From a virus, in IMG/VR virus record IMGVR_UViG_3300029858_000001, positions 27,123-91,122 of that record: 64,000 nt of DNA; one strand, written 5' to 3'. The notes under the pieces were generated by a model. That model ran no database searches and was not told the DNA's origin. It saw only the letters and a list, made by a program, of their open reading frames with translations. Within the stretch, counting starts at the first letter, position 1. Each line of letters begins with the position of its first letter. Both the position numbers and the translations under genes were made by a program. Positions 5,311 through 44,876 of this stretch are shown piece by piece.

Positions 5311-5535
5311 ATGGCAAATAAAACATTCCAAGGTCGTATTGTTTAGAAGCATGATACAAAAGCCAATTGGGATAAAGCAACTAATTTTGTTCCTTTAAAA
5401 GGTGAAATTATTATTTACGATGATTTAAAGAAAATAAAAATAGGTGATGGAACTACTAAAGTAACAGATCTTGTTTTTATTAATGATAATATTTCATCTA
5501 CTACAATCATCACTTGGTCTGATGATGGAACTTAA
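5311..5535 (+). CDS. Small adaptor-module protein (KIKIGDGTTKVTDL); one in-frame TAG
   Basis: RBS AAGGAGG, ATG at 5311, TAA at 5533. It shares the module with 3889-4230. Confidence 0.5.
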
Positions 5536-5554
5536 GAAAAAGGAGAGATAAAAT

Positions 5555-5914
5555 ATGGGATTATATTTAGGAAAAGAAAAAATAAATAATATATCAGTTG
5601 GAGAAGCAGCTTTAGGTATCACTGATATTTCTGATGAAACTACTATCAATATTTCAGGAATTTTAAAAGGGGAAAATCATAAAATAGTTTCAGCTACTCC
5701 TGGTGTTGATTATGTTATCCCTAATAGTTTAAATAATTTTATTACTTAGGATGATTTAAAATCAAAAGCTAATATTAATTCCCCTAACTTCACTGGAGCC
5801 CCTTTAGCTCCTACTCCTGATATTAGTATTAATAATACTTAGATAGCAACGACAGAATTTGTTAATCTTTTAATTAATAATAAAATTTCTGCTATTTTAA
5901 ATAAGGCATACTAA
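5555..5914 (+). CDS. Tail fiber repeat protein (NSPNFTGAPLAPTPDISINNTQIATTEFVN motif); read through TAG at 5747 and 5840
   Basis: Track ORF 5555-5749 extends in frame to TAA at 5912. The SP.FTG.P.APTP + IATT.FV motif is the classical phage tail-fibre repeat. Confidence 0.6.
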
Positions 5915-5928
5915 GGGGGGGGAAAATT

Positions 5929-7143
5929 ATGGAAGAAAAAATATATTAGCCTTTAATCCATGGACAATTAATAATTACCCATCAATGCCAGTTAAATTGC
6001 ACTTATTGTTTTGAAAGTTATAAAGATAATAATGTTATGACATTAGATACTTGTAAAAAAATAATAACTTTTTTATCTGAAAATAATATAAATAATGAAC
6101 CGCAAGTTATTAGTTTTTTTGGAGGAGAGCCATTATTACATTTTAATGATATAATGTAGCCAATAATTAATTGGAATAAAAATGAATTACAAAATAAAAA
6201 TATGTATTTTACATTTACAACTAATGGTCTATTATTAACTGAAGATATTTTACAATATTGTAAAGATAATAATGTTAAATTTATGTTATCTATAGATGGA
6301 AATAAAGAAAGTCAAGATGCTACTAGAAAATATAAAAATAACAATAATTCAACATTTGATAAATTATCAGAAAATATTCCAAATATATTAAAATATTTTC
6401 CTAATACTACAGCTAGATTAACTATAGATGTCAATAATATTTCTTATTTAGCTGACTCTATAAAATATTTAGATGAAATTGGTTTTCAAAATTGTCATGT
6501 TATACCAGATGTTTTTTCTTCTTGGTCTTCTGAAATAGAATAGATTTATAAGGATCAATTAAATTAGTTAAATGAATACTTTATAAAAAAATTTACAAAT
6601 TATACAGTTCCTTTAATTCCAGCAACTTGGAAAGAAATGATGATAAAAAAAATTATAAAAGATTATTTAGAAGAAAATAATTTATTTAGAACTGCGGATA
6701 TCTGCCTTCCTCAAAATAGATGTGGTTTTTGTTTTCAAAGAAAAGGATTTTTTGAAACCAATGGAGATATTTATACTTGTGGACATTTAACTAATGAAAG
6801 TAAAGATAGTAATTTTTATTTAGGTAATATTTATGATAATTAGCCAATTGATATAAATAAAATTGAATCTCTCTATTTATTAAATAAAGAAAATAAAATT
6901 TTTAATAAAAATTGTGATAATAATTGTCCATTATTTAATTGCTGCACTGGCGGTTGTTTACCAAATAACTATTTAATTAATAATAATTTATTTAATGCCC
7001 CTGATGCTTATTGTAGCTGGTATAAAAATTTATTTAACTCTGTAGATTCTTTATTACAATATTTTGACAAAGATAAAAAAAATATTTTATTTAAGAATTA
7101 CTTTTATGGAGCAGTAAAAGGAGGATGCCATTATGTCTGCTAA
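5929..7143 (+). CDS. Radical SAM / SPASM-domain peptide-modifying enzyme (rSAM-1)
   Basis: CX3CX2C motif HQCQLNCTYC and FFGGEPLL. The C-terminal SPASM-like Cys clusters are CGFCFQ..YTCGH and NCDNNCPLFNCCTGGC. Frame-1 reading is continuous across 5 TAGs, joining track ORFs 6202 and 6637. Confidence 0.8.
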
Positions 7144-8107
7144 ATTATCTGAATGGCTGTTAGATGGATTAGATATCAATAAAATAGTTCATAATGGAGA
7201 TGGCAATGATTTAGTTTCACCTATATAGGATACTGATAGTGCCACTTATTCTGAATATTCTAAATATTCTAATTATTCTAATACATATTCTAGATATTCT
7301 AGGTATTCTGATTATGATAACTATTATAATTATTCTGTTTATTATAATTATTCTAATTATTCTAATACAATTAGCATTTCTGGATAGCCAGTCAGTCAAA
7401 TTATTACTTATGGTAATAAAGTAACTTTTACTGTTACTTTTTCTAAAACACCTTCATCATATCAATGGTATGTATCTACTGTTTCTTCTGGAGGTGGAAC
7501 AGCTATTTCTGGAGCTACTTCTTCTTCATATTCATTTACTCCTAAACTATCAGACAATGGAAAATATTATTATTGTGTAGCTTCATTAGGCAATACAGTT
7601 ACATCAAATTCAGCTCAATTAACTATAAAATATATTGATAGTTGTAATATTTCTACTAGCATAGGTGAATCTATTAATATATACAGTTATTTACTACCAA
7701 AATCTTCAATAATTAACTCTTATAATTTAGAAGATAATTCCATTGCTACTATTTCTGAAAATACCTTAATTGGTAATAAAGCTGGTAAAACTACTCTTAC
7801 TTTAGTAAGTAGCAATGGATTAAATAAAGCAATAGAAATAAATGTATTTGAAAATAAATTAGAATCAGTCTTATATAATATTGCTTAGGCAATAAAAAAA
7901 TATAATAATTTAAATTAGACTCTTTATCCAAATCAATTTTATAATAGTCTAAAATCTAAAAATATTAGTTCAAAAAATTATAATACTTTAGAAGATTTAT
8001 TTACAGATCTAAGTACAGTAATAAAAGAAATTAAAGGTATTTCTACTTCATTAAAGCCAGAAGAATTTTTTTATAAAATTTTGGAGGGTATAAATTATGA
8101 CAGATAA
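7133..8107 (+). CDS. Tyr-Ser tandem-repeat protein with Ig-like (BIG2-like) domains; candidate rSAM substrate / fiber component
   Basis: RBS GGAGG. The start overlaps the rSAM-1 stop and the gene ends by overlapping the rSAM-2 start. N-terminal region is YSEYSKYSNYSNTYSRYSRYSDYDNYYNYSVYYNYSNYSNT. Downstream beta-rich Ig-like region is IATISENTLIGNKAGKTTLTLVSSNG. Confidence 0.6.
7246..7372 (+). repeat. About 14 tandem copies of a 9-bp unit (TATTCTNAW) encoding (Y-S-x)n
   Basis: Direct reading of tattctgaa tattctaaa tattctaat tattctaat ... aattattct aattattct. It lies inside CDS 7133-8107 and generates spurious poly-Ile/Leu ORFs in other frames. Confidence 0.85.
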
Positions 8108-9296
8108 AGAATTATTTTTATCTTATTATAAAAAATAGAATCCAGATTTAGAAAAAAAAGTACATAATAAAATTTTAGTTTTACTTCATGGCAGTTATAA
8201 ATGTAATTCAAATTGTATTTATTGCGAAAATCATCGTTTAAGAGAAGAATATTTAAATGCTACTGTCTCTAAAAATATATTAGATCAAATTATTAAAAAA
8301 TTAGGTCCAATAATTAGAGAAATTACTTGGCATGGAGGAGAACCTTTACTTTTATCTGAAGATCTATTATCTTATTTAGAATAGCTTAAAAAAGAAAGAG
8401 GATATACTTTCCCTACAACCTTATAGACAAATTCTATATTATTAAATGAAGAAAAGTATAATTTTTTAAATAATTTAAACATTCATTGGGGAACATCATT
8501 TGATGGACTAAAAAATAATTTATCCAGAGGAGAAAAAAGTACTAAAGCAGTATTAGATTTAATATCACGACATAAAAATGAAGTAGGATTTATTTGTGTT
8601 TATTATAATGATACGATAAAAGATATAATTCAAAATTATGAATATTTTAAAAGTTTATAGATAAAAAATGTATAGTCATGTATCGTTCGAGAAAATATAA
8701 TTGAAAATTCTAATGTATATTTAATACATAATGATGATGCTTTAAATTATATGACCAATTACATAGATTATTGGATACATGATATTAATAACCCAATAAA
8801 TGATCATTATATAACACGATAGATTTTACGAGTTTTAAATGTCCCGTCTAATTGTGAAGATGATTATTGTATTGGTGGATGGATTTATATAGATGCTTTT
8901 GGCAATATAGGATTTTGTGGATAGTCTCCTAAAGATACTCCTATATTAAATATTAATGATATAAATAATTACAGTGATTTTTTAAATAATAAAAATTATT
9001 TAAATATTATTGGTAAACAAATAAAATTAGAAGAAAAATGTAGCTTATGTGAATGGCGAAATGTATGTCATGGAGGCTGTATGGGACTTAATTATGAAAC
9101 AAATCATAATTATGAAATTTTAAATCCTCGTCACTGTGAATATACAAAAAATCTTTTGACTAATGTTTATGAATTAATAAAAAACATTGATATTACAAGG
9201 AAAGATATTTATAATCCTATGTTTTTATAGTTATTAGAATCAAATTCTTACAAGACCTTAAATGAGATAAAGGAGCTAAATAAAATAAATGGCTAA
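8097..9296 (+). CDS. Radical SAM / SPASM-domain enzyme (rSAM-2)
   Basis: CX3CX2C motif CNSNCIYC and WHGGEPLL. C-terminal CSLCEWRNVCHGGCMG. Frame-0 reading is continuous across about 8 TAGs. It is translationally coupled to its neighbours. Confidence 0.75.
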
Positions 9297-10251
9297 TATA
9301 GCAATTTTAAATTATTGTAATTTATAGTGTCCATATTGCTTTGCAAATAAATTTATTACTGAAGAAAAGAAACAATTTATAACAGATAAAGAATTAGATG
9401 ATATATTGAATTTTTTAAGTCACAGCACTGATTTCGGAAGAATTGGAATTATAGGAGGAGAACCTACGATACATCCCAAATTTGAAGATGTATTTACTAA
9501 AATTTCAAATTTTGCAGAACAACATAATGTTTCTACAGTTACATTTTCAAATGGAATTGAATTATACAATTATGCTAAATTATTTAATAAACAAAATAAT
9601 GTTTTAATTAATTTAAATCATCCTGATATTATTGGAGAAGAAAAATGGAATAAAATTAATTTGACTTTAAATACGTTTAAAGCATTAAATAATTTAGATC
9701 ATATCACTTTAGGTATAAATTTGTACCCCGATATTATTGATTATTAGTATATAATAAAAATGTCTAAAAAATTTGGATTTCGAATGGTTAGATGCAGCTA
9801 TGTAGCTCCAACTTGTAATTATAATAATATTGATAAAGATGAATATTATTTAAATGCAAAAAATTTATTTCTAAATTTCATAAAAGATTGTGGGAATGAA
9901 CAAATACAAATCCATTTAGACTGTAATAATATACCATTATGTTATTTTTCAGAAGAAGAAAAAATAATATTAAATAAAAATGTGACTGGATGGCATAATT
10001 TATGCAATCCAGTTGTAGATATAACCCCTGATATGAAAGCAACTGCTTGTTTTGGAGCTTATAGTTTAATTGATTTAAAATAGTTTGATAATATTAAAGA
10101 AGCAGAAAATTATTTTTTACTTAAAAAAATGTATCCTAAAAGATTACTAAATAATGGTGGAAAATGCCAAGAATGTAAAAAATTTTTAAATCTTTCATGT
10201 CAAGGAGGATGTTTAGCTTTTACAAAAAATTCAGAGGAGGTAAATAATTAA
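9289..10251 (+). CDS. Radical SAM / SPASM-like enzyme (rSAM-3); its CX3CX2C motif contains a TAG codon
   Basis: MANIAILNYCNL(TAG)CPYCF and IIGGEPTIHP. C-terminal CQECKKFLNLSCQGGCLAF. Frame-1 reading joins track ORFs 9406 and 9760 across TAGs. Confidence 0.75.
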
Positions 10252-10252
10252 A

Positions 10253-11044
10253 ATGTCTTTAATAAGTACATCCAAACAAATAACCTCATTAAAAATAAAT
10301 AAAGTACCATCTGCAGCTGTATATGCTAAAATGGTTGCACAAAATAAAATTAATGATGATGAATTATATTTTGTTCAAGAAACTGAATAGGTCATAAACA
10401 AATTTACATTTACTGCAACAGCAGGATAGTCTACATTTACCATTCCATTCAATTTTGAAGATAGTAGCGCGCTTACAATCTATTATAATGGTATAATGAT
10501 GAAAGAAACAGATAACTATACCATATCTGGCAAAGATATTACTCTTGTAGATTTTACTGCTGAAGCAGGCGATTATCTTACTGTAATGGGTATAGAAGGG
10601 GCTGCAGCTATTGATTTTGGTAAAGAAGCAACAGAGGCAATTGCTCAAATAAATGCGACAAAAGAATCAGCTACCACTGAAATAAACACAGTTAAAACAA
10701 ATGCTATCACAGAAATTAATAATCTAGTTGCTACATTACCATCAGACACTTCTAATATTATGTTTATGAATAAAACTAATACTATGACTGCTGATGGTAA
10801 AATTACTATGAACAATGCTTACAATCCTTTAGCTAATGGAGACGTTGCTACAAAAAAATATGTTGATGATAGTAAGCCTTCGATAGTTGGCACATCTACC
10901 ACTTATCCAATTTACATTGGGTCATCTGCTCCAGCGTCAGGTACAGCCCCCTTACTATGGATTGATACATCTTCATCCGGCACATTTAAATATCGCACAT
11001 CTACAACTGGAACTTGGACCATAGTGCCTGTTGCTTGGAGTTAA
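10253..11044 (+). CDS. Tail fiber protein with conserved C-terminal module (LLWIDTSSSGTFKYRTSTTGTWTIVPVAWS)
   Basis: ATG at 10253 after GGAGG. It reads through TAG at ~10388 and ~10427 into track ORF 10496-11044. The KKYVDDS motif is present. The C-terminal module is paralogous to 14244-14678. Confidence 0.6.
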
Positions 11045-11059
11045 TAAGGAGATTAATAG

Positions 11060-12046
11060 ATGGAAATAAAAAATAGTGAAAAATTATTAGATTCTTTAGT
11101 TATAAATAAAATTCCATCTAAAAAAATTTTTAATTAGATGATTCAAGAAGGGAAAGTAAATAATAATGAAATTTATATGGTATTAGACCATGAAGATTTG
11201 CCATATAAATATACTTTCATCGCGCAAGAAGGAGATACAATATTTACTTTCCCTTTTATTGTTAAAAATCCTGAAGATTTAAATATATTTTTTAATGGTA
11301 TATTAATGACTAAAAACATAAATTATATAATTCAAAATAATAAAATTAAGTTATTAGATTTTGCAGCATCGGCTAATGATAGTATTATTGTTCTTAATAT
11401 TCGAGGAATAGATCCAGAAGATTATCTATCAGATGTAATAAATGATTTATAGATTATAAAAAATGATACTATTTAGGCTATTGATAATAAAATGAGTGAA
11501 TTGCCAGAAGATATGAATGAAATGTTATTAACCTCAAAAAATAATATTATGACAACAGGCAAAATAACTATGAGTAGTTCTTACACACCATCTAGTTCTG
11601 AAGATTTAACTGATAAAAAATATGTTGATTAGTAGATATAGAATAACAAAATTTCTAAAGTAAGTCAATTAACTAATGATGTTGGATATCTTACATCTCA
11701 TTTAGTTAGATCAGTAAATGGAATGACTGGCGATATAAGTATTAAAGGAGCTTATGTTGGAAGTTATATAGGAAATAATGCTTTAACAAAAACTCTTAAT
11801 TTTAATTTTGAACCTGCTTATTTGATGCTATTTATGGTACAAACTAACGCTGGTACTGCTCAAAATTATATGTGTGGCATACAAGGAATGAAATATCCAT
11901 TTCCTAATAATAATGGCACTTATGTTAGTTTTACTTGGAATTCAAAATCAGTTATTATTACTGCTACTAATAGTTATTATACTAATATATTCAATAATAG
12001 CAGTTATACTTATTATTACATGGCAATTCCTAAATTTAATAATTAA
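11060..12046 (+). CDS. Tail fiber protein (KKYVD and LTNDVGYLT motifs); many TAGs including three within 5 codons
   Basis: RBS AAGGAG. Frame-2 reading is continuous from 11060 to TAA at 12044, joining track ORFs 11138 and 11723. The NDxGYxT motif is typical of tail fibers. Confidence 0.55.
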
Positions 12047-12059
12047 AGGAGGCTTTTAA

Positions 12060-12482
12060 ATGTCTAAACCAAAAATTTTAGAATAGATTGAAAATGCAAG
12101 CGGTGTATTTATTGCCACTTATGGAACTACCACTTTTGCCGAAGTCAAAGCAGCTTATGAAGCAGGAAAAATTTTATAGTGTATAGATACATCAGGGGCT
12201 GCTCGCCCAATAGCTTCTTTACTATTAGCTCGTCCCAATGTAGCTTTTGTATTTGGTAATTTTAATAAAACATATTAGATAACCAGTAAAGATGTTTGGC
12301 AAACACAAGATAGTTCTTTAGTCAAAAAATCAGGAAGTACAATGACCGGAGCTTTGGTAGCTTATAATCCTACTGCGATTAATTCAAATAGTGAAATTCA
12401 TAATACAATTATAAGTACGACTGAACCAACAGCATCAGATGGCAATATCGGTGATATTTGGATACAATATGAGGGTGAATAA
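12060..12482 (+). CDS. Hypothetical structural protein; three in-frame TAGs
   Basis: RBS AAAGGAGG, ATG at 12060, frame-0 reading to TAA at 12480. Confidence 0.45.
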
Positions 12483-12495
12483 GGAGTTGATTTAA

Positions 12496-14070
12496 TTGGC
12501 AAAACAAACAATTACTTTAACTAATATGCTTACTAATCCAAGTTTTGAAAATACTGGATGGCAAGCTAACGCTAATTGCTCAGTTGCTTATGATTCTAGC
12601 ATTAAACATTCTGGCTCATATTCTTTAAAAGTTACTTCTACTTCTTCAAGTGAATCATTAATTATTACTACTAATACTTATTCTATAACATAGAATCATA
12701 TTTATTATGTTAGTGTTTGGTTTTATGAAACAGCTAATAATGTAGGATCAATGCAGTGCTATTGGCCAATTGCTGAACCATTAATTGGCACAGCAACAGT
12801 AGATTCAACCAAATTAAATCAATGGCAATAGCTTACTTGGCGTAATACCCGTTCTTCTTGGAGTACTGGAACAGCGCAAGCATTTCGTTTTGATTTTGAA
12901 AGTATGGCATCAGGCAAAATTGCTTATGTAGATGATGCTATGTTAATTGATTTAACCGCAGCTTTTGGAAGTGGTAATGAACCAACACAAGACTGGTGCA
13001 AAAAAAATATTGAATATTTCACTGGTAATACAACTATTCAATATGAAGCTCCTACTATATATGATTTGACTTCTGTAATTCCTAAGATAATTAAAACAGG
13101 TGATATATTAAATTGTCCTTATAGCGGATCTGCTAAATCAATTACTCTTCCAAAAGGATAGTATAAATTAGAATGCTGGGGCGCTTAGGGTGGTACAATG
13201 TCATCATAGGGTTATAATGGTGGCCATGGAGGATATTCAGTAGGCAATATCATTTTAACAAAGAAAGAAACATTATTCTTTTACACAGGAGGAGCAGGTA
13301 CTACTTCAAACACTAATGCTGGATTTAATGGTGGCGGAACAGGTATAAGCAATGGTAGAGGCGGTGGTGGCGCTTCTGATATTCGTATTGGTCAAGATTC
13401 TTTATATGCTAGAGTAATAGTCGCTGGCGGCGGCGGTGGTGCTGGTGTAGGTAGTGCAACTGTAAATCCAGCTGGTTGTGGTGGTGGCTTATATGGCGGT
13501 GATGGATATTATAATAATACCACGGGTCAATATACCTCTGGTACTGCCCGCGATGGTGGAGGCGCTTCACAGACTGCTGGAGGTAAATCTTGGAATACTC
13601 AACCAGCTGGCACTGGAACTTTTGGTAAAGGCGGAAATGCTTCTGGTTATTCTTGTGGTGGAGGAGGCGGCGGCTGGTATGGCGGCGGTGGTGCCTATGA
13701 TAATGACTCAGACTCTGATGGTCGTTGGGGGGGTGGTGGCTCTGGCTATGTATATACTTCATCAACCGCTTCTAATTATCCATCCGGCTGTTTACTTAAT
13801 TCGTCTTATTATTTAACCGATGCTCAAACAATTGCTGGTAATACTGCATTTGCTTCTCCAACAGGAGCAAACGAGATAGGTCATACAGGGAATGGTTATG
13901 TGCGCATTACTGTTATAGAAGCTAAGTCTGGAAATACTTTGATAAAAACTACTTCAAACACTTGGAAAGAATAGAAACAAATGTTTGTAAAAACTACTAC
14001 TACTACTTGGAAACCTATAAAAGGTGTATGGACAAAAATCACATCTGATACTTGGAAACAAACATTATAA
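12496..14070 (+). CDS. Glycine-rich domain protein (putative receptor-binding / fiber protein)
   Basis: RBS AAGGAG then TTG at 12496. Frame-1 reading is continuous across several TAGs and joins track ORF 12904. Gly-rich core YKLECWGA(Q)GGTMSS(Q)GYNGGHGG...GGGGGWYGGGGAYD ends in GNGYVRITVIE. Confidence 0.6.
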
Positions 14071-14163
14071 AATTTGATTTTTAAAAAATTATTTTATATA
14101 ATATAAATGTAAATAAGAAATAAATTTTTTATTTACAGCATTTAACTCACCCCTTTCTTAAAT

Positions 14164-14200
14164 AGGACATAATAATTAAATTATTATGTCCTATTTTTTA
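14164..14200 (+). terminator. Rho-independent terminator
   Basis: AGGACATAATAATTAAATTATTATGTCCT followed by a T-run. Confidence 0.7.
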
Positions 14201-14243
14201 TTTATATAAGAAAATAAAAATAAAATAGGAGGGAGAAAAGTAA

Positions 14244-14678
14244 ATGGCAATAAATTCAAATACTTCTCTTAATGAATTAGTTATACATTAGGTTCCTTCT
14301 AAAACCTTATATAAAACATTAAAAGAAAATGGGTCTATTAGTGGACAAACATTATGCATTATAGATGGTGAACAAGAATAGCGTTTATATAAAGATGAAG
14401 TAAATCAAATGGCTGAAGGCGGCAAAATACAAATGGCTTCATCCTATACTCCAATAGCAGATAACGATGTATGTACAAAGAAATACGCTGATAGTATTAA
14501 TCCAAGTGTTACTCCTACTGTTGGTTTTGATTTAACCAATCAAATTTATATTGGTTCAACTGATCCCGGTTCTAATGCTGCTGCGCTCATATGGGTTGAT
14601 ACTTCTTCATCCGGAGCATTAAAGTATCGCACTTCAAAAACTGATACTTGGAAAATTATTCCTGTCGCTTGGAGTTGA
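14244..14678 (+). CDS. Small tail fiber paralog sharing the C-terminal module of 10253-11044 (LIWVDTSSSGALKYRTSKTDTWKIIPVAWS)
   Basis: RBS GGAGGGAG, ATG at 14244, two TAGs read through into track ORF 14409-14678, TGA stop. Confidence 0.55.
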
Positions 14679-14723: not shown

Positions 14724-15449
14724 ATGGCGGAAGATAAACAATATAGTTCAGGTTCGATAGTTGATATAGATAGATTAACTAAATTAAAAGCAAAAGTAAA
14801 AGCTGAATGTTTACGTCGTAAATACACTGGGTCTGTAGAGAATTACGGCGGTTCAACATATGATTTTTCTAATAATCCTATGGTAGGAGGAATTATTAAA
14901 AGAGAATATTATGATAAAAATGCCACTCCTTTAAATGCTATTAATAATAATTTAGTTCCAAAAGCAAATATAACGAACGCTGAAAATGTTGCATTAAATA
15001 ATGAAATATATAATATGGACTATTAGGTTAGTGCTTGGATGACTACTGATAAGGTTAATGATAAACATACTGATTGTGCAAATAGTTGTACAGGTTTATG
15101 TTTAAGCTGTACTGGCTCTTGTACTTCTGGATGTTCAAATACTTGCCGTGCAAATTGTGCAAATGATTGTACTGGTGTTTGCGGTGATGGTTGTACTAAT
15201 TCTTGCAGAGGATGCGGAAGTGGCTGTTCTGGTAGTTGTTATGGCGATTGCGATGGTGGATGTAAAGGCACTTGTACTGTCACTTGCGGTTATCAAGGAT
15301 GCTCTGGAGTATGCTAGGAAGGATGTAAGAGTAACTGCAGCGGCACATGCACTAAAAGTTGTGGGCGTTGTGGAAGTAATAGTTGCTCTGGAGCTTGCAC
15401 TACTTCAAGTACGGGTAATGTCACTGGTAATAGTAGCTCCAACACTTAA
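14724..15449 (+). CDS. Hyper-cysteine-rich CxxxC-repeat protein: about 100-aa N-terminal leader-like region plus about 140-aa Cys-rich region; candidate rSAM/SPASM substrate
   Basis: Track ORFs 14724-15026 and 15039-15317 are in the same frame and joined by TAG. The reading continues past TAG at 15315 to TAA at 15447. The core is CANSCTGLCLSCTGSCTSGCSNTCRANCANDCTGVCGDGC... with about 40 Cys at regular CX3C spacing. Confidence 0.65.
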
Positions 15450-15461
15450 TGAGGATAATAA

Positions 15462-16037
15462 ATGAATGAATTAAAATATAATATATATTTTACCTAGTTA
15501 TTAATAGCCATATAGGAAAATAAAGATATAACAGAATTTTGTAAAAAAATTGATAAAGAATTAAATATTGCAACTGAAGAAGATTGCAAAATAATATTTT
15601 TATCATAGTTTACTAATAATACAATTAAATTATTTAAATTTGATACCATACAAGAAGTAGAAAACTATATTCATAATCTATAGAATTGGTTAAATCAAAT
15701 ACCATGTATAACATCTTTTATTGATGTTTTTCAATATTCTTATATAATTTAGTTTATTATTATGTCAAAAAATTATTATCCTGAAATTGATTTATGTTGC
15801 AAAGATAATATACTTAATTCTATTTTAGATAATTTAGACAAAATTAAAATCAATGCTATTATTTTACCTTTTTTAAATTATTGTTTAAAATTTTATTTAC
15901 AAAAAGGTATTAGTTTAATTTATAAAAATACTTGTGATAAGTTAATTATGAATATAGAAAAATTAATGGAAAATACAAGTATTCGAAATCAAGGTATATT
16001 TAGAATACCATCGTTAGAAAAGGATTTAGAAGAATGA
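15462..16037 (+). CDS. Hypothetical protein, radical-SAM-associated
   Basis: RBS GAGGA then ATG at 15462. It is in frame with track ORF 15762-16037 across 4 TAGs, with no TAA/TGA. TGA stop overlaps the next start. Confidence 0.45.
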
Positions 16038-16303
16038 AGATACAAATTCCAAAAGAACAAAGTAATTATTTAGAAATGCTTACTTATGAAGTACAATGTC
16101 ATCAAGATTTATTAACTTTTATGGCGGCACATGGTATTGATAAAAATATTTCTCAAAATTATTATGAAAAATATCAAGATTATTATATTGAGTTAGCTTT
16201 GGCCAAAGCTCAATTAGAAAGTTATCTAAAAACTCAAATAAATGAACCATTGATTAATTGGTCTTTAGATTTTTTTAGTGCTGAGGTAAGTATAAATGAT
16301 TAA
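16034..16303 (+). CDS. Small rSAM-partner protein (paralog of 38213-38464)
   Basis: Complete track ORF. ATGA overlap with the upstream gene and an overlap with the rSAM-4 start. NYYEKYQDYYIELALAKAQLESYL is similar to NYYLQEYIKAYTDISIFKFQLFKKL in the partner of rSAM-5. Confidence 0.5.
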   Translation: MKIQIPKEQSNYLEMLTYEVQCHQDLLTFMAAHGIDKNISQNYYEKYQDYYIELALAKAQLESYLKTQINEPLINWSLDFFSAEVSIND

Positions 16304-17582
16304 ATTCCCAGGTACTGAAGAATTCACGGATACTTTAGGTCGTTATTTTGGCAGCCCAAATGTTGAAAAAACACGAACTATTACATTTCAAATAACAGAT
16401 GACTGCAATCTATGTTGCTCTTATTGTTATCAAATTAATAAAGGACATCATAAAATGCCTTTTGAGATAGCTAAAACATTAATTGATGAATTACTTTATA
16501 ATGATAAATTAATTGAAAATTATGTAAAATCAAAAAATTCTTTAGGAGTTATATTAGAATTTATTGGTGGTGAACCATTACTTGAAGTAGATTTAATAGA
16601 TTAGATTATTGATTATTTCATAGAATAGTGTATTACTTTGCATCATCCTTGGATTGATAGATTTAGAGTCTCTATTTGTTCTAATGGAGTTTTATATTTT
16701 ACTCCAAAAGTACAAGAATTTATTAAAAAGCATCAAACTCATTTGTCATTTTCAATATCTATTGATGGTAATAAAAAATTGCATGATACTTGTCGTATTT
16801 TTCCAGATGGTACTGGTAGCTATGATTTAGCAATTAAAGCCGCAAAACATTATATGAAGCATTATGATAAAAATTTAGGAAGTAAAATGACTTTATCTAT
16901 AGATAATATTAATTATACTTTCCTTGCATTAGTAAATTTATGGGAAAATGGATATAATTATATTCATGCCAATTGCGTTTATGAAAAAGGCTGGACAATA
17001 GAACATGCACGAGTTTTATATAATGAATTAAAAAAGGTAGCTGATTATCTTCTTAATAATCATTTAGAAAAAATTAAAGGTACTTCTATATTAAATCTTG
17101 ATTTAAGTCAATAGAAAAATATATCAGATCAAAATTTCTGTGGTGGTAATGGTAATATGCTCGCCGTTGATTATAAAGGTGATTTATACCCTTGTTTACG
17201 TTATATGGAAAGTTCAATAGGTAAAAATCAATTACCATATATTATTGGCAATGTTGATGATGGCATTGGATATAACCAATAGACAAAGGATATGATAGCT
17301 GGATTAGATGTAACATATAAATCACAAAGTCCGTAGGACTGTATTGAATGTCCAGTGTCAAGTGAATGCGGTTGGTGTTCTGCTCTTAATTATCAAGAAT
17401 TTGGTACTATTAATAAACGTACTACATATACATGCTTAATGCATAAGGCACGAGTATTAGCAAATTATTATTATCAAAATAAAATGGGCGGTAATTATCC
17501 ATTTTTAATTAATAGACAAGATGCTATAGATATAATCGGTGAAGATGAAACTAACTATTTAATGGAGTTAGCTAATGGATAA
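16296..17582 (+). CDS. Radical SAM / SPASM-domain enzyme (rSAM-4), paralog of rSAM-5
   Basis: ITFQITDDCNLCCSYCYQ (CX3CX2C) and FIGGEPLL. SPASM-like CIECPVSSECGWCSALNY. Frame-0 reading joins track ORFs 16296, 16638 and 17355 across TAGs. Confidence 0.8.
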
Positions 17583-18240
17583 TTTCATTTATGGATGTAT
17601 TGAAGGTTCTTATGCCTAGGGAATGTAGACTGAAAATAGTGATTTAGATATTATTGAAGTATATAATGCCGCAATACATATGGAAAAAGAATTAAAAAAA
17701 GTTAATGATATTAAGTCGAATTGGTCAAATGCTTCTCGGCAAATATTTAGTTCTTAGTCTTTTATATATAACTTATTTTATGAACCAAGTTGTGAGTATT
17801 ATAGATGGCTATTCCCTTATAAGTATTTGAGTGATAATGAATTAACTACTTATATTAAAAAATATAATGAAGATATTATTAAGGAAAATCTTCCTTACTT
17901 ATATCAACGATTAATGCAAGCTCATGATAGTTATATGGTATTAGGACATCAAAATAATAATTATAAATATTATTATAAAAGTTTAGATAAATATGCTTTA
18001 TTAATAGAGTATAAAAAATTTGGAAGTTATCAAGAAAGTTTATTCTGTAAAGATTATAAGCAATTGTTATTAGATATAAAATTAGGTAAATACACTAAAA
18101 AATAGATATTAAATTTTGATAAAGAGTTCAAAAAATAGATTGATGGCTTTTGGTATATGACTAATGAATCTTGTAATATATATCAATAGACTTTAATTAA
18201 TTTAGTAAATGATACTTCTATCTCAGAATTCTATATTTGA
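17575..18240 (+). CDS. Hypothetical protein
   Basis: ATG at 17575 overlaps the rSAM-4 stop. It reads through about 6 TAGs, includes track ORF 17827-18105, and ends at TGA 18238. Confidence 0.4.
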
Positions 18241-18305: not shown

Positions 18306-18378
18306 GCCGGCATAGCACAGTTGGTAGTGCAGCTGATTTGTAATCAGCAGGTCGGGGGTTCGAATCCGTCTGCCGGCT
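18306..18378 (+). tRNA. tRNA-Thr(UGU)
   Basis: Hand-folded cloverleaf. Acceptor GCCGGCA/TGCCGGC, D-stem GCAC/GTGC, anticodon stem GCTGA/TCAGC with loop TTTGTAA. The T-arm has one mismatch. CCA is not encoded. Confidence 0.6.
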
Positions 18379-18457
18379 CGCTATCATGTGAAAGCCTTCT
18401 CGTGGCGATAGTGTTTTAACTAATTTCACAATTATTTATTAAAGGAGTCATTTAGAT

Positions 18458-19105
18458 ATGGCATACATTTATTAGATAACAAATAATATTAATGGAAAAA
18501 TTTATGTTGGTAAAACAGTAAAAAATAATATTTAGGAACGTTGGAAAGAACACCTTAAAGAGTATAAAAAACCTAGATGTGAAAAACGTCCTTTATATGA
18601 CGCAATGAATAAATATGGTTCAGAAAATTTTTCTATTAAAGAGTTAGAGGAATGTCCATTAGAAGAACTTAATGATAAAGAAGTTTATTGGATTGAAAAA
18701 TTAGGTTCTTTTAAATATGGATATAACGCTACAATTGGCGGAGATGGCAAACAATATATTGACTATGATTTAGTATGCGAAACATATAAGAATTTACAAT
18801 GTATTGTAGATACTGCTAAACAATTAAATATTAGTGAAGATTCAGTTTCTAAAATTTTAAAATTATATAAAATTGATATTATTCCTAATGCTAAAATAGT
18901 TCAAAATAAGTATGGGAAAATAATTAATATGTATGATTTAAATGATAATTATTTAAGGACTTTTCCATCAACAACTGAAGCAGCTAAATTTATGGTAGAA
19001 AATAAATTAACTAATTGTAAAATGACTACTATAAAACAACATATTTCTGAAGTATGCAAAGGTAAACGAAATACAGCTGCTAAGTTTAAATGGAAATATG
19101 CTTAA
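18458..19105 (+). CDS. GIY-YIG homing endonuclease
   Basis: N-terminus MAYIY(Q)ITNNINGKIYVGKTVKNNI(Q)ERWKEH... is the GIY-YIG motif. Two TAGs read through into track ORF 18605-19105. It sits inside the tRNA island. Confidence 0.75.
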
Positions 19106-19118
19106 TTATTATACCATT

Positions 19119-19218
19119 AGCCAAGATTAGATAGTTAATAAAACCGTTTCTAGTTAATAGATTCTAGATGGCCGGGACTCAAAACTGTTGGCAATTCTAA
19201 TCTTGGCTATTTTCTTTT
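19119..19218 (+). terminator. Long imperfect stem-loop (AGCCAAGATTAG ... CTAATCTTGGCT) followed by a T-rich run
   Basis: Inverted repeat read directly downstream of the endonuclease gene. It is unusually long (about 90 nt) and could also be a small structured RNA. Confidence 0.4.
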
Positions 19219-19262
19219 ATTTGAAAAAATTAAAAAAATGATATATAATATATATACAAAAT
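19212..19262 (+). promoter_or_regulatory. Conserved promoter motif (..ATGATATATAATATATATACAAAATAAAGAAA)
   Basis: Same motif family, upstream of 19300-19653. Confidence 0.5.
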
Positions 19263-19299
19263 AAAGAAAAAAATAAATGAGAAAAAGGTGTTAAAAGTT

Positions 19300-19653
19300 A
19301 TGGAATATTCTCTGGATAAGTATAAGTATTATGTCCCCACTAAGGCAGATGGTACACCATATAAGGTTGTTGCAGTTTCTACTTATGCTGGTAGGACTGT
19401 GCGTGGTGTAGCTAAGTGTGATCCGAAGGATACCTTTGATGCTGAAAAGGGTAAGCAGCTTGCTGCAGCACGTTGTCAGGCAAAGGTCAGTTCTCAGCGT
19501 CTGAAGCGTGCTACTAAGAAGCTTGATGAAGCTACTAAGGCACTTGAGAAGGCACAGAAGTATTATGATGATATGACTGTGTATTTCAATGATAGTGCAA
19601 GAGATAAGGAAATGTACGATAGCGTAGTTGAAAGACTTGCTAAGGAAATGTAA
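19300..19653 (+). CDS. Hypothetical protein (TAG-free, higher GC; paralog of 40627-41181)
   Basis: Track ORF with ATG at 19300. It shares the pattern G(T/V)A(R/K)C.P.D...EKG...A.AR with 40627-41181. A terminator follows at 19663-19690. Confidence 0.55.
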   Translation: MEYSLDKYKYYVPTKADGTPYKVVAVSTYAGRTVRGVAKCDPKDTFDAEKGKQLAAARCQAKVSSQRLKRATKKLDEATKALEKAQKYYDDMTVYFNDSARDKEMYDSVVERLAKEM

Positions 19654-19684
19654 TAAATAAGGGTAATTAATTACCCTTTATTAT

Positions 19685-19761
19685 CCGGGTGTAGTTCAGT
19701 TTGGTAGAACGCTTGATTTGGGATCAAGAGGCCGTGAGTTCAAGTCTCGCCACTCGGACCA
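19685..19761 (+). tRNA. tRNA-Pro(UGG)
   Basis: Acceptor CCGGGTG/CACTCGG, anticodon loop TTTGGGA, T-arm GTGAG-TTCAAGT-CTCGC, 3' CCA encoded. Confidence 0.7.
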
Positions 19762-20037
19762 TCAGGGTTCTGTTAAAGATACATAATTGAAAAGGATTGA
19801 TCCCCCTAAGTAAATTAGTATTGGAATGAAAAAATGAGGTCTAGATGACACAGATAACCTCCCCTGAGCCATCCCTTTTGTTAGTAGGTTGTCAGGGTTA
19901 AATAACTAACATTAAAGACACACGCAGCAAATATTAGATAAAATCTATGTGTTATTGGTTCAAGTCCAATATTATCTCTGTTAAGATAATTCGCCCAAAT
20001 GGTAGGGCAATAGCTAATTTATTTAATGTGTCTTGTA

Positions 20038-20085
20038 AATTTGAATTTTAAAAAAAAATATTATATAATATATAAGTAATCAATA
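20038..20085 (+). promoter_or_regulatory. Conserved promoter motif (TTGAATTTTAAAAAAAAATATTATATAATATATAAG) upstream of tRNA-Gln/Tyr
   Basis: TTGAAT, 17-nt spacer, TATAAT. Confidence 0.55.
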
Positions 20086-20110
20086 AGAAATTATTAATTA
20101 CTTATAATTT

Positions 20111-20185
20111 ACTGGTGTCGCCAAGTGGTAAGGCACAGGACTTTGACTCCTGTATTCGTTGGTTCAAATCCAGCCACCAGTGCCA
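20111..20185 (+). tRNA. tRNA-Gln(UUG)
   Basis: Acceptor ACTGGTG/CACCAGT, anticodon stem CAGGA/TCCTG with loop CTTTGAC, discriminator G, CCA. It is very similar to E. coli tRNA-Gln. Confidence 0.7.
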
Positions 20186-20189
20186 ATAT

Positions 20190-20276
20190 AGGTCAGTACA
20201 GTGTAATTGGTATCACCCCTGACTGTAAATCAGGTGCTTAATGCGGTTGTTGGTTCAAGTCCAACCTGGCCTACCA
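20190..20276 (+). tRNA. tRNA-Tyr(GUA), type II with long variable arm
   Basis: Acceptor AGGTCAG/CTGGCCT, anticodon loop CTGTAAA, T-arm GTTGG-TTCAAGT-CCAAC, CCA encoded. Confidence 0.65.
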
Positions 20277-20288
20277 TTTAAAATAAAA

Positions 20289-20330
20289 TTTGAAAATTTA
20301 AAAAAAATATTATATAATATATATATAATA
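20289..20330 (+). promoter_or_regulatory. Conserved promoter motif (TTGAAAATTTAAAAAAAATATTATATAATATATATATAAT) driving the large ncRNA candidate
   Basis: Motif family with -35 TTGAAA and -10 TATAAT. Nothing protein-coding lies downstream for about 1.4 kb. Confidence 0.5.
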
Positions 20331-21720
20331 AATGAACTTTAAAAATTAAATAATAATTTAATTACGGTTATAGTACAACTCAGTGTAGACTTAACACCAT
20401 AAGGCTGAGAAATCGACCCACTCTAGTGGAGATCGTAGAATGAAATATTCAAAGGATACTTTGAAATTATTTCTAAATCTTTTGTAGTGATACATTAGAT
20501 TCACGCATCGAAGGATGTGGCTACGGGGAGATTGTGCTGGAATAATCGCATTTAAGGTCCTGTTCTTCTCGCTTCCATAATAGATAGCATTGTTAATAGC
20601 AATGCCGAATCCTTGTTAGGGTAAGGCTGGTAACCTTGCCAAACCAAGGAAATACCAATAAGGAAGTTGGCAATTGATGTGGCGTAATCCACTATAAGAG
20701 AAGGTCAAGGGTCAAGTAGCCGAAATTTGCCAAGACAGTATATTTTATAGTTAATATTGGTAATTTTAGTTCTGAATGGTCGGTGAAAGATAGAGGTAGT
20801 CAGTCCTCTGTAAGATTTGGCTTAGGCTGGGGCAAGAAGTTATGAAGTCGCTATTCATAGCTCAGACTTGTTTCCTTACTTACCTAATAAAATGAAGATT
20901 ATTAATCAGTAGGGCGAAGGTCCGTAGTATAATTGTAATTAAGTTATTATTTAATAACTTACGATTCCTTTCACAAAGTAATTTTATAACGTATATAACG
21001 GTAAGAAGGTCTATAGGTAGAGAAAACTACAAAGGAATGTGCATATCTTTCCTAATTATTAAAATTACTTTAAAATGAATTATGTAGATGCTAATATAGG
21101 CGGTGGCTTGCATACTACTAATCCCATTGGGTAGCCAATCCCACATCGTTAGGGACCTCTGCGGAACCTGCTCCTATGGCTGTAGGGTTCTTACATAATC
21201 TAATCAAATAAGGTTGACTCGCCTGTTGTCCGGTGAAATGATATATCTGGAAACCGTACTGATACGTATCAGATATTTGATTAGCGTCCTAATCTTGGTT
21301 AATTAGGTAGTGGAACAATACGCTAAACCAGCCAGCTCTCCACTATAAATAAGCTGAATAGGGATGTTTGTGGTTCACATACCAAAAAGCCATTACCAAG
21401 TGCGGAAATAAGATCCTTGGTAGTCTCTCATATAAAGGCGTGGAAAATGAGACGTGATGGACTACGAAAAAGACATATAATAGGTAGAGTTATTATTTAT
21501 TGTGTTAGATTATAGAATGAAAATCCTATTATTAAAAACTGTATATTCTACTTCCTATTGGTAGGTATTATAAGTTTAATGGTAGGTCAAAAATTTAATA
21601 TATTCCAATAGCTAATGAATGAGGTAAGCTGAAGTACTTAGTGGCGTGGGCAGGCATAGAGGCGACCTATAAATGGTTAGTGGCTATGGTGTAGTTTATT
21701 CCTATTGGATATATTAATTT
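20330..21720 (+). ncRNA. Large ORF-free structured ncRNA candidate (GOLLD/ROOL-like phage ornate RNA?)
   Basis: No ORF of 60 aa or more on either strand from 19653 to 22204. Local GC (about 40%) is well above the coding background. It has many G/C-rich short helices, its own promoter, and flanking tRNAs. Class assignment is inference only. Confidence 0.45.
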
Positions 21721-21744
21721 TTGTAAATATATTATACTGAATAA

Positions 21745-21790
21745 TTTGATTTTAAAAAAATTATTTAGTATAATATATTTACAAGATAAA
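21745..21790 (+). promoter_or_regulatory. Conserved promoter motif (TTGATTTTAAAAAAATTATTTAGTATAATATATTTACAAG) upstream of the suppressor tRNA
   Basis: TTGATT, 17-nt spacer, TATAAT. A leader hairpin (AGACAGTTT...AAACTGTCT) lies between the promoter and the tRNA. Confidence 0.55.
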
Positions 21791-21900
21791 GAGAAGTTAG
21801 GATAATTTCTCTAAGACAGTTTCAGCAAATTTTTATTAAAGATAATCATATGTTTTTGGTTCATAAGAAGATACTTTATTAAACTGTCTTGTATATATAT

Positions 21901-21975
21901 TCCGGCTTTGGGTAGCGGTTAGCTCAGCTGACTCTAAATCAGCAAGTCTCAGTTCGACTCTGAGAGCCGGTGCCA
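21901..21975 (+). tRNA. Amber suppressor tRNA, anticodon CUA (reads UAG); identity probably Gln
   Basis: Acceptor 3' strand AGCCGGT pairs with CCGGCT at 21902-21907. Anticodon stem GCTGA/TCAGC with loop CT-CTA-AA (U33 present). T-arm CTCAG-TTCGACT-CTGAG. Discriminator G then CCA. Short variable loop (type I). Confidence 0.7.
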
Positions 21976-22074
21976 GGCGTAAGGCTCACGCAGCAAATTT
22001 ACTTTTGAAAGTTCACCTAAAATGAATTGCTATTTTTCAAAATTGAGTCTTGATTTAATTAATATAGTTTATTT

Positions 22075-22160
22075 GCCGGTGTGGTGGAATGGTAGACACA
22101 AGGGACTTAAAATCCCTCGGTGGCAACACCATGCGGGTTCGAGTCCCGCCACCGGCACCA
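22075..22160 (+). tRNA. tRNA-Leu(UAA), type II
   Basis: Acceptor GCCGGTG/CACCGGC, anticodon loop CTTAAAA, long variable arm, T-arm GCGGG-TTCGAGT-CCCGC, CCA encoded. Confidence 0.7.
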
Positions 22161-22164
22161 TTAA

Positions 22165-22415
22165 ACAATAGTAGCTAACGGCAGTTGAATAGACGGGTCG
22201 GGGCTAACATAGAAAGGTTAGCAGGTAGTGCGGCGGTAGGTAACAAATCCGCAAGTCGAAATGAGTTGGGAAATCCAAATGATACGGCTTAGATGTTTTC
22301 CTCACTTGAGGTTTGGATGGAGATTTTAGGCAAAGGATAACAACCTTTGACTGCCATCCTGTAAAGCGACCATGAAACAGGGTCATAGCTACCATACTAT
22401 TGTTTATTAATACCA
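22165..22415 (+). ncRNA. Second GC-balanced non-coding stretch between tRNA-Leu and tRNA-Gly (small structured RNA candidate)
   Basis: About 250 nt with no credible ORF. The minus-strand track ORF 22204-22416 has no RBS and lies in the tRNA island. Several complementary segments are visible, for example GGTTAGC..GCTAAC and CCAAAT..ATTTGG. Confidence 0.3.
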
Positions 22416-22420
22416 AATAT

Positions 22421-22494
22421 CCAGGATTAGTTTAATGGTAAAACTGGTGATTTCCAATCATCTGTTGGGAGTTCAATTCTCCTATCCTGGTCCA
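22421..22494 (+). tRNA. tRNA-Gly(UCC)
   Basis: Acceptor CCAGGAT/ATCCTGG, D-stem GTTT/AAAC, anticodon stem GGTGA/TCATC with loop TTTCCAA, T-arm GGGAG-TTCAATT-CTCCT, CCA. Confidence 0.65.
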
Positions 22495-39758: not shown

Positions 39759-40568
39759 ATGGCTTGTGATAATGGTGGATGTTCTACCGAATGTTTTAAT
39801 TGCCATAAAGCAGGTGACAATGGCTAGACTGGAGGAGCCGGTAATGGTGGCGCTGGCTGTTCTCAATCTTATTGTATGTCTGGATGTTCTATTTGCTCCA
39901 GTCATTGTGGAGATGGTTGTAAAGGAGGATGCTCGGCTAATTGCGGAGGATGTTCTGGTGGCTGCTCAGGGTGTGATAACAGTTGCTCAGGATGCTCTGG
40001 AACTTGCAGCGGAGGATGTAAAGGAACTTGCACTACTGCTTGTGCTGAACAATGTTCAGGATCTTGTTCCGCAGGGTGTGTTGGCAATTGTAATTATGGG
40101 TGTACAAGTGAAGAAGTTAATAAATTAATAGAAAATTTACATCTTTCTCGTATTGCTGAAAGTGATGATATTAATAACTTAAAAAAGATTATTTTCCGTT
40201 TATTTGAAAATTTAAAAATTAGTACAATATATAAAAATCAAAACTATATTAATGAATTTGGAGATAATACCATAGCTGGATTAGTTAATAATTGGAATGA
40301 AGATGAAGATGGTAAAATGACATTTACCTTGTTATTAAATAAAACATTTGAAACAATTATTACCAATTTAAATAATCTTAATCAAAATCGTACAAATATT
40401 GATTAGAATAAAATGAATCCAATAAAAATTTGGACTGTAGAAATTCCAGATCCAAATGATTTTACTAAAACTAAAACAATTCAATTAAATACAGTAGATA
40501 GAAATGCTGCATTATATTGGATTGAATGTTTAAAAAATATTTATAATTTAGTAGCTCCTGTGAAATAA
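39759..40568 (+). CDS. Cys-rich CxxxC-repeat protein 2 (Cys-rich N-terminal about 115 aa plus non-Cys C-terminal about 150 aa); candidate rSAM substrate
   Basis: RBS GGAAGGAGG. ATG lies 4 nt after the rSAM-5 stop. CSICSSHCGDGCKGGCSANCGGCSGGCSGCDNSCSGCSGTCSGGCKGTC... It reads through TAG at ~39822 and 40404. Confidence 0.65.
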
Positions 40569-44588: not shown

Positions 44589-44876
44589 ATGAAGTATTTT
44601 ATTGATATTCCTGCTGAATATCTTAATGAATTAAAGGATAGCTATTTTGAGACTGAAGCTTATAAGGATATTATGGCTGAAGTAATTGTTCGTGATAGAG
44701 ATTGTGATAATGATACATTAACTAAGGTTACTAATCTTTATAAGAATGCACTCATTCGTTATACAAAAGCTAAGGCTGATCTGGAACTTGATTTTGTTCG
44801 TAAAAATTATCCAACAGTTACAAGCTGGACGGCAACGTTTGGCGATGATAAACTTGAAATTAATACTACTGATTAA
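44589..44876 (+). CDS. Hypothetical protein
   Basis: Complete TAG-free track ORF with RBS AAGGAG and a terminator at 44884-44912. Confidence 0.5.
   Translation: MKYFIDIPAEYLNELKDSYFETEAYKDIMAEVIVRDRDCDNDTLTKVTNLYKNALIRYTKAKADLELDFVRKNYPTVTSWTATFGDDKLEINTTD

Follow-up and report, generated by a model that had tools for sequence, protein, structure and literature searches.

The 64-kb window analyzed here (64,000 nucleotides, positions 27,123 to 91,122 of IMG/VR virus record IMGVR_UViG_3300029858_000001) is gut phage DNA with a G+C content of 30.5%. It contains a gene cassette, at positions 14724 to 18240, in which a protein with a long array of regularly spaced cysteines, designated Cys1, is encoded together with a radical S-adenosylmethionine (rSAM) enzyme, rSAM-4, and three further proteins. 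TAG is a sense codon in this window, and the long open reading frames (ORFs) emerge only when it is read through. The features of the cassette are as follows.

14724..15449, + strand: Cys1, 241 amino acids, proposed rSAM substrate; an N-domain followed by a CxxxC array, with TAG read as sense
14724..15071, + strand: N-domain of Cys1, amino acids 1-116, with the conserved motif LKAKVKAECLRRKYTGSV..YGG..YD...PLNAIN
15024..15026, + strand: in-frame TAG, codon 101 of Cys1; a sense codon, probably Gln
15072..15401, + strand: Cys array, amino acids 117-226 of Cys1, with 28 Cys
15315..15317, + strand: in-frame TAG, codon 198 of Cys1, inside the Cys array
15462..16037, + strand: 191-amino acid protein (h190), an optional cassette member; 5 TAG
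16034..16303, + strand: 89-amino acid small partner, a remote homolog of TIGR04116 by profile comparison
16296..17582, + strand: rSAM-4, radical SAM/SPASM maturase of 428 amino acids, a TIGR04115 member by its score; 5 TAG
17575..18240, + strand: nucleotidyltransferase-like protein of 221 amino acids, an optional recurrent neighbor; 6 TAG

Read with TAG as sense, Cys1 forms a single ORF of 241 codons, of which codons 101 and 198 are TAG, in agreement with a first-pass annotation of the locus, made from the sequence alone, which had noted that this gene is visible only under read-through. The same annotation described two small proteins after Cys1 and called all of the genes overlapping. The coordinates of both genes held, although a protein of 191 amino acids is not especially small, and the last three junctions do overlap (by 4, 8 and 8 nt), whereas a 12-nt gap separates Cys1 from the 191-amino acid gene. 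A Shine-Dalgarno-like sequence precedes each of 15462-16037, 16034-16303, 16296-17582 and 17575-18240.

Residues 1-116 of Cys1 are unremarkable in sequence and include only one Cys, at position 29. By comparison, residues 118-225 contain 28 Cys, and 22 of the 27 successive spacings equal 4, the remainder being 3 (three times) or 5 (twice). When the array segment was shuffled 100,000 times, the maximum was 11 spacings of 4. The spacers are S, T, G, N, A and D, and a 16-amino acid tail of S, T and N follows the array. The Cys at nearly every fourth position and the Ser/Thr/Asn/Asp/Gly spacers of the first-pass description are thus confirmed, while the length of the array is about 110 rather than about 140 amino acids. 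AlphaFold2 (AF2), using 47 homologs, predicted a helical N-domain with moderate confidence (block-mean predicted local distance difference test, pLDDT, of 64-88 over residues 11-110). Pfam and NCBIfam scans of the N-domain gave nothing usable at E values up to 10, and the only direct hidden Markov model (HMM) match of Cys1 was a weak one to TIGR04117 (E 0.003). PF27846, first taken as the family of the N-domain, was rejected in this capacity, as it describes the Cys repeat itself (tSAM_targ_Cxxx_rpt). No export signal was found on Cys1 or its family, whose sequences start with the helical N-domain.

A word-indexed search retrieved more than 225 Cys1 homologs, and an exhaustive search with the first 100 residues of Cys1 gave at least 158 clusters at 50% identity. 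Common to all of the homologs is a conserved N-domain of about 100 amino acids carrying the motif listed above. Behind it lies an array that is hypervariable and holds 13-69 Cys (median 30), so that the size of the Cys1 array, thought unusual at first, is normal for the family. In 63 unique family proteins we counted 1510 CxxxC and 600 CxxC units, with spacers that were mainly S, G and T. The junction ahead of the first Cys is semi-conserved, reading ...(S/T)(G/D)C. The homologs carry precomputed Pfam PF27846 assignments, and those in UniProt and BFVD are unnamed or auto-named.

Genomic neighborhoods were then compared. Eighty viral loci were chosen by N-domain similarity alone and annotated with local HMMs, there being 95 loci in total at that stage, and 13 loci from bacterial genomes were collected with a narrower N-domain alignment. 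The local 'small' and 'Ndom' HMMs were rebuilt with domain trimming after contamination by fusion proteins and Cys repeats. An rSAM gene of the TIGR04115 type was present within about 2 kb of the Cys1 homolog in all 80 viral loci except four at a contig edge, and the same pairing was found in five distant members. The small partner was found in 86 of the 95 loci, and 12 of the 13 loci from bacterial genomes or metagenome-assembled genomes (MAGs) had the full cassette, the other being truncated. Gene order varied, with the rSAM gene ahead of the Cys gene in about 45 loci and the Cys gene ahead of the rSAM gene, with other genes between them, in about 40. The hosts of the 13 bacterial-genome loci were Flavonifractor, Oscillospiraceae, Christensenella, Clostridium and the isolate "Bacterium D16-76", all strict anaerobes, which fits both an oxygen-sensitive enzyme and a need for redox-independent crosslinks. 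From these data we conclude that the genes for substrate, partner and enzyme are near-obligately linked in about 100 loci of diverse tailed phages and prophages of anaerobic Clostridia. One of the first-pass claims, that the array goes with an rSAM/SPASM enzyme, is therefore borne out by virtually all related loci that no contig end interrupts, and the enzyme of the window scores above the TIGR04115 cutoff.

Some loci depart from a single copy of each gene. On a 195-kb TAG-recoded contig (L014, positions 4797-8579), two tandem partner-rSAM fusions precede one gene encoding an N-domain and Cys array, and duplicated rSAM genes or two substrate genes also occur in L042, L066 and L072. Two short MAG contigs of Clostridium sp. 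(L105 and L106; G+C content 27-29%) have the same cassette order as the window. Both appear to be TAG-recoded, since the standard code splits their rSAM gene into fragments, and their binning with Clostridium sp. genomes hints, weakly, at which host the window phage infects.

When compared with the NCBIfam model TIGR04115 ("radical SAM peptide maturase, CXXX-repeat target family"), rSAM-4 scored 421 bits against a cutoff of 350 over the entire profile (1-359 of 359), which places it in this family on the strength of the model match. It has a CX3CX2C motif at residues 37-44 and a complete SPASM Cys set (C282...G...C300, C349xxC352x5C358xxC361 and C380), and it corresponds to phrog_1802. The next-best models were far below their cutoffs (PapB, 174-182 bits; SCIFF maturase, 117 bits; QhpD, 104 bits), and the match to anSME was weak (62 bits). 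The closest solved structure was that of CteB (5WGG; E 8e-21 over residues 26-388). Since this match starts at CteB residue 96, rSAM-4 is without the N-terminal domain of about 95 amino acids that serves CteB as a RiPP recognition element (RRE; RiPP, a peptide synthesized ribosomally and modified post-translationally). Every characterized close relative (CteB, PapB and QhpD) makes Cys-S-to-carbon bonds, which makes thioether chemistry our best guess for rSAM-4, a guess about as apt to be right as wrong.

The 89-amino acid partner was not recognized as TIGR04116 by hmmscan, and Pfam and NCBIfam searches with it gave nothing usable at E values up to 10. A relationship emerged when a profile of 23 diverse phage partners was compared by hhalign with the TIGR04116 protein of L002, a contig deposited as phage that has bacterial gene content and that was left out of the profile. 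The two aligned end to end over 85 columns (92.7%, E 4.3e-7). By HMM the relation gave 22.8 bits; the L002 protein scores 104.6 bits as a TIGR04116 member. On the basis of this profile alignment, we conclude that the partner is homologous to the TIGR04116 accessory protein. Its AF2 model had a pLDDT of 94. An RRE or PqqD-like identity (a winged helix, with a three-stranded sheet followed by three helices) was rejected on fold as well as on sequence.

Gene fusions connect the partner to the other two components. It is joined to the N-terminus of the rSAM enzyme in 11 ORFs from at least five locus groups (L014, twice; L017; L022; L047/57/58; L052-54; L060), and the substrate of P0334 has it fused at its own C-terminus (72.7 bits). 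Taken together with the position of the partner where CteB-type enzymes have their RRE, and with the obligate linkage, these fusions leave an enzyme-adaptor-substrate relation as the only economical reading. The first-pass suggestion that the partner is RRE-like thus fails as a statement about fold and survives as one about role. A partner role had been proposed for both small proteins; TIGR04116 homology and rSAM fusions bear it out for the 89-amino acid protein, whereas the 191-amino acid protein has no detectable family and is optional.

For the latter protein (h190), no Pfam, NCBIfam or PHROG match was found, the Pfam and NCBIfam scans giving nothing usable at E values up to 10, and homologs occupy the equivalent position in L001, L008-L011, L016, L020, L021, L025 and most of the genome-derived loci. 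The 221-amino acid product of 17575-18240 gave weak matches to Pfam Polbeta and NTP_transf_2, corresponds to phrog_388, and has a GS...G...DLD motif, like a minimal nucleotidyltransferase. Its homologs adjoin the cassette in 10 of the 95 viral and 2 of the 13 genome loci. The loci with such a gene at the 3' end of the cassette, about 12 in number, include the window, L008, L012, L014, L016, L022, L046, L098 and L103.

Cassettes were found in baseplate or tail-fiber modules wherever neighbors were annotated. Ahead of the cassette are GpU/gp25/Baseplate_J/Tail_P2_I in L008, a P2-like myophage; Sheath_initiator/Wedge1/Phage_tail_fib in L013; and a tape-measure protein in L015, a siphophage-like contig. 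An ORF ending in LWID...G.LKY...W..VPV.Y(S/T) is present in 56 of the 95 loci and is directly upstream of the cassette in 54 of these, and the L013 ORF with this type of ending carries Pfam Phage_tail_fib. Such endings are found in the window in ORFs 10253-11044 and 14244-14678, the second of which lies directly upstream of Cys1.

14244..14678, + strand: fiber-like protein of 144 amino acids, ending in the motif ...LIWVDTSSSGALKYRTS..W.IIPVAWS

These fiber-like proteins are candidate docking partners for the N-domain. Cys1 itself lies with the fiber-like genes of the 10253-14678 block, behind a tail-fiber-like protein (12496-14070) that has an N-terminal carbohydrate-binding module (CBM), CBM_4_9, and an ALK/LTK-type glycine-rich domain (PF12810, E 1e-47). 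In P0206, a CBM-like domain homologous to the N-terminus of this fiber protein (E 6e-16) is fused to an N-domain and Cys array, which suggests that the distal modules are interchangeable. The phage structural context proposed at first pass is therefore real, and it is the rule for the Cys1 family. That Cys1 is a component of the virion we infer from synteny and fusions alone.

Codon usage provided information about the time of expression. In-frame TAG occurred at 12 per 1000 codons in the structural block (1-18.3 kb) and at 0 in 44.6-52.2 kb. The five cassette genes (14724-18240) contain 18 in-frame TAG codons, and the replication genes contain 0. In-frame TAG in recoded phages is a mark of structural and lysis genes that are expressed late (bioRxiv 10.1101/2021.08.26.457843), and the codon usage of the cassette is that of late-expressed genes. 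Read-through would be permitted by the following tRNA.

21901..21975, + strand: suppressor tRNA with anticodon CTA

This gene belongs to a cluster of seven phage tRNAs at 18306-22494. Similarity to the other tRNAs of the phage did not reveal its amino acid, tRNA-Thr being the best match at 63% (tRNA-Gln, 51%), so the identity of TAG rests on homolog alignments. At the two best-aligned TAG sites of rSAM-4, Gln was present in 36 of 57 and 22 of 57 standard-code homologs, and the TAG at codon 101 of Cys1 is Q in database translations of close homologs. TAG is thus probably read as Gln. This pattern fits code 15, which has been demonstrated experimentally in gut phages (PMC9523058).

Its TIGR04115 membership and TIGR04116 homology identify the cassette, at the level of sequence families, as a phage version of the CXXX-repeat system that is already defined in model libraries (TIGR04114-TIGR04119; PF27846), a system that reportedly goes back to in-silico studies of rSAM proteins by Haft. 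Our literature search found no experimental study of the CXXX-repeat rSAM family and no description of a phage branch. The bacterial form is illustrated by L002, where one operon encodes a Tat (twin-arginine translocation)-signal protein with 32 Cys that starts MNNKIQSRREFFK..., a TIGR04115-type rSAM enzyme, TIGR04119, a TIGR04116 protein of 91 amino acids and TatA/TatC. Both forms combine a TIGR04115-type enzyme, above cutoff in the case of rSAM-4, with a TIGR04116-related partner and an S/G/T-rich target with Cys at every fourth position. They differ in that the phage target has a helical N-domain (or, in a second phage protein described below, a C-terminal domain) where the L002 target has a Tat signal, and in that the phage partner is diverged and sometimes fused. 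The phage genes also lie in a tail module and are accompanied by the optional 191-amino acid and nucleotidyltransferase-like genes. TIGR04119, a SPASM-only "CXXX repeat peptide maturase", was not found among the TAG-recoded ORFs of the window by phmmer with the L002 protein.

Characterized systems resemble the cassette in part. PapB, which forms Cys-S to Asp C-beta thioethers in the CX3D repeats of freyrasin, is the nearest named maturase after TIGR04115 and likewise pairs an rSAM/SPASM enzyme with a short-period repeat of Cys donors; however, rSAM-4 reached only 174 bits against the NF047865 cutoff of 340 and has no fused RRE. The SCIFF synthase CteB shares the rSAM core and the two-cluster SPASM domain and has its own RRE at residues 1-95, a position taken in the phage system by a small partner of different fold. 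The SCIFF peptide has six Cys, compared with 28 in the Cys1 array. A precedent for an rSAM/SPASM enzyme that staples a protein destined to be a structural part of a larger assembly is QhpD, which makes Cys-Asp/Glu thioethers within QhpC, the small subunit of quinohemoprotein amine dehydrogenase. The rSAM-4 score with the QhpD model TIGR03906 (104 bits) is far under the cutoff of 453, and QhpC is a periplasmic enzyme subunit with only a few crosslinks to defined acidic acceptors. Covalent crosslinks also harden the virion of HK97, where the isopeptide chainmail of the capsid forms autocatalytically or spontaneously. Reinforcement of the Cys1 type would have a similar purpose, but would use a dedicated radical enzyme encoded beside its substrate.

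The window contains a second cassette and a third homolog of the small partner.

38213..38464, + strand: weak small-partner homolog of about 83 amino acids (14 bits versus the small-partner HMM)
38406..39755, + strand: rSAM-5, a paralog of rSAM-4 (38% identity, BLASTP E 3e-96)
39759..40568, + strand: Cys2, 269 amino acids; Cys array at the N-terminus, unrelated domain at the C-terminus
44589..44876, + strand: third small-partner homolog, 95 amino acids (38.3 bits, E 1.6e-11 versus the small-partner HMM)

The TIGR04115 score of rSAM-5 was 344.6 bits, just below the cutoff of 350. The Cys2 array has 26 Cys in residues 3-115, with 17 of the 25 spacings equal to 4. Pfam and NCBIfam scans of Cys2 gave nothing usable at E values up to 10, and homology of its C-terminal domain to the N-domain of Cys1 was rejected (0.8 bits). 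The second cassette was conserved in sibling phages only (L003-L007 and L109-L114; about 100-190 kb), where the equivalents of ORF 38213-38464 (77-81 amino acids) scored 11-15 bits with the small-partner HMM. No rSAM or Cys-rich gene adjoins the third small-partner homolog.

A different array is encoded at 7133-8107. This 324-amino acid protein has Tyr at every third position (YSEYSKYSNYSNTYSRYSRYSDYDNYYNYSVYYNYSNYSN; most Tyr spacings equal 3) and, behind this array, weak immunoglobulin-like matches below threshold. It is flanked by three rSAM genes (5929-7143, 8097-9296 and 9289-10251). The best matches of the 8097-9296 product were the cyclophane- or ether-forming maturases DynA, DarW, YhhB and AmcB. 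The 7133-8107 gene may encode a second, triceptide-like tail protein crosslinked by rSAM chemistry. Having five rSAM genes, a further cassette with a Cys array and this Tyr-every-third array, the phage may subject several tail proteins to radical crosslinking.

The interpretation that we favor, with moderate confidence, is that rSAM-4 and its partner crosslink the Cys1 array and thereby yield a stapled element of the tail fiber or baseplate. During late infection, rSAM-4 and the 89-amino acid partner would bind Cys1, probably through its conserved N-domain, with the partner taking the N-terminal place of the substrate-docking RRE domain of CteB-type maturases. The enzyme would then introduce many intramolecular thioether-type (Cys-S to carbon) crosslinks into the array, inside a host cytoplasm that, being reducing and anoxic, does not allow disulfides to form. 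The N-domain would stay attached, as a handle for the enzyme complex, for the tail-fiber partner, or for both. The predicted product is a covalently stapled, rigid, reduction- and protease-resistant part of the tail-fiber/baseplate apparatus. Non-reducible staples would be useful to a particle that is assembled in a reducing cytoplasm and then meets an anoxic gut in which disulfides are useless. The roles of the N-domain, the 191-amino acid protein and the nucleotidyltransferase-like protein are among those that we infer. A broader proposition, that many phages of strictly anaerobic gut Clostridia build tail-fiber or receptor-binding parts from a Cys-repeat protein stapled, ahead of assembly, by a phage rSAM enzyme with dozens of non-reducible crosslinks, is advanced more tentatively, as we think it somewhat less probable than its opposite.

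Several results weigh against a stapled tail element. No biochemically characterized TIGR04115 member was found in the literature searched, so that thioether formation is an extrapolation from relatives. The substrate also lacks a conserved acceptor. In PapB substrates the Cys must be followed, on its C-terminal side, by an Asp or Glu acceptor, and the enzyme also needs a leader to which its RRE binds (PMC12373016). In the 1510 CxxxC units position i+4 is Cys, and Asp plus Glu account for just 3-7% of the x positions; the PapB rule therefore cannot apply, and either the acceptors would be Ser, Thr, Gly or Asn carbons or the chemistry differs. The first-pass analogy with the freyrasin C-X3-D repeats consequently does not hold in its details, and thioethers of the ranthipeptide or sactipeptide type are suggested only by the nearest characterized relatives of the enzyme. 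AF2 (47 sequences) predicted no fold for the Cys array (pLDDT 31-41), and the N-domain resembles no known fiber or baseplate domain. The Tat signal and TIGR04119 of the bacterial system are both absent from the phage system, and the two may differ in function. The second cassette (38.2-40.6 kb) is outside the tail-fiber block, next to a gene for a 459-amino acid protein (36668-38047), and the 191-amino acid and nucleotidyltransferase-like proteins are left unexplained. Finally, no virion proteome or cultured phage with a Cys1-type protein was found, the phage collection consisting of unannotated metagenomic contigs.

Other explanations were weighed against the same observations. Cys1 could be the precursor of a phage RiPP, its N-domain being a cleaved leader and its modified Cys core being freed at lysis as a bacteriocin, signal, anti-competitor or anti-defense product rather than kept in the virion. 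A conserved N-domain ahead of a hypervariable core of 13-69 Cys does look like a leader and core, the junction before the first Cys is semi-conserved, the enzyme falls in a RiPP-maturase clade, and release by lysis would make an exporter unnecessary. We nonetheless regard this explanation as unlikely. No C39-type processing peptidase or ABC exporter was found among the Pfam-annotated neighbors of five distant loci, nor any protease gene in or beside the cassette there; the gene lies inside baseplate and tail-fiber modules of unrelated phage types; and in P0206 the N-domain and array are joined to a CBM-like fiber N-terminus. Moreover, the N-domain is predicted to be a folded helical domain of about 100 amino acids rather than a short leader, and Cys2 carries its array at the N-terminus and its globular domain at the C-terminus.

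The remaining explanations concern what happens to the Cys residues. If rSAM-4 modified Cys1 by non-thioether chemistry, such as anSME-like formylglycine formation from Cys, C-methylation or the production of another reactive residue, the result would be a reactive, unstapled tail element. The TIGR04115 family is uncharacterized, the array is without a conserved acceptor residue, and anSME, which rSAM-4 matches weakly at 62 bits, is a SPASM enzyme too. Thioether synthases match far better than anSME (PapB, 174 bits; SCIFF maturase, 117 bits; CteB, E 8e-21), NCBIfam gives the name peptide maturase to related models for Cys-rich targets, and the characterized matches among them (SCIFF maturase and PapB) form thioethers, so we consider such chemistry improbable. 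Still further from what we expect, and in our judgment highly improbable, is that the array is a metal- or Fe-S-binding domain (metallothionein- or ferredoxin-like) or a disulfide domain with an rSAM gene adjacent for another reason. The very high Cys density would suit such a domain, CxxCxxCxxxCP strings, a ferredoxin motif, occur in some relatives (P0094), and the Tat signal on the bacterial homolog is typical of exported proteins that bear cofactors. Yet the near-obligate linkage to an rSAM enzyme and partner over about 100 loci, together with the fusions, would be hard to explain, ferredoxin-like spacing is not conserved in the family (1510 CxxxC versus 600 CxxC units), and disulfides would neither form in the cytoplasm nor persist in the anoxic gut.

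The CXXX-repeat rSAM family was already known from curated models; the N-domain and Cys-array family, its linkage to tail modules, the partner-rSAM fusions and the second, paralogous cassette are new. For a family without a known product, chemistry or role that we could find, the phage branch provides a concrete setting: genes expressed late, in tail modules, in phages of anaerobic hosts. This branch is a resource as well, comprising a natural series of 13-69 Cys per protein, fusions that define the enzyme-partner-substrate complex, and candidate cultured hosts. As the array is without PapB-type acidic acceptors, a new acceptor rule or a new chemistry is likely. If rSAM-4 does staple Cys1 and Cys1 is part of the virion, these would be, to our knowledge, the first post-translational crosslinks installed by a radical enzyme in a virion protein, and RiPP-type radical chemistry would reach from small secreted peptides to viral structural proteins. 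Such crosslinks would explain how phages of anaerobes stabilize their extracellular parts without disulfides, by means of an oxygen-independent substitute for them.

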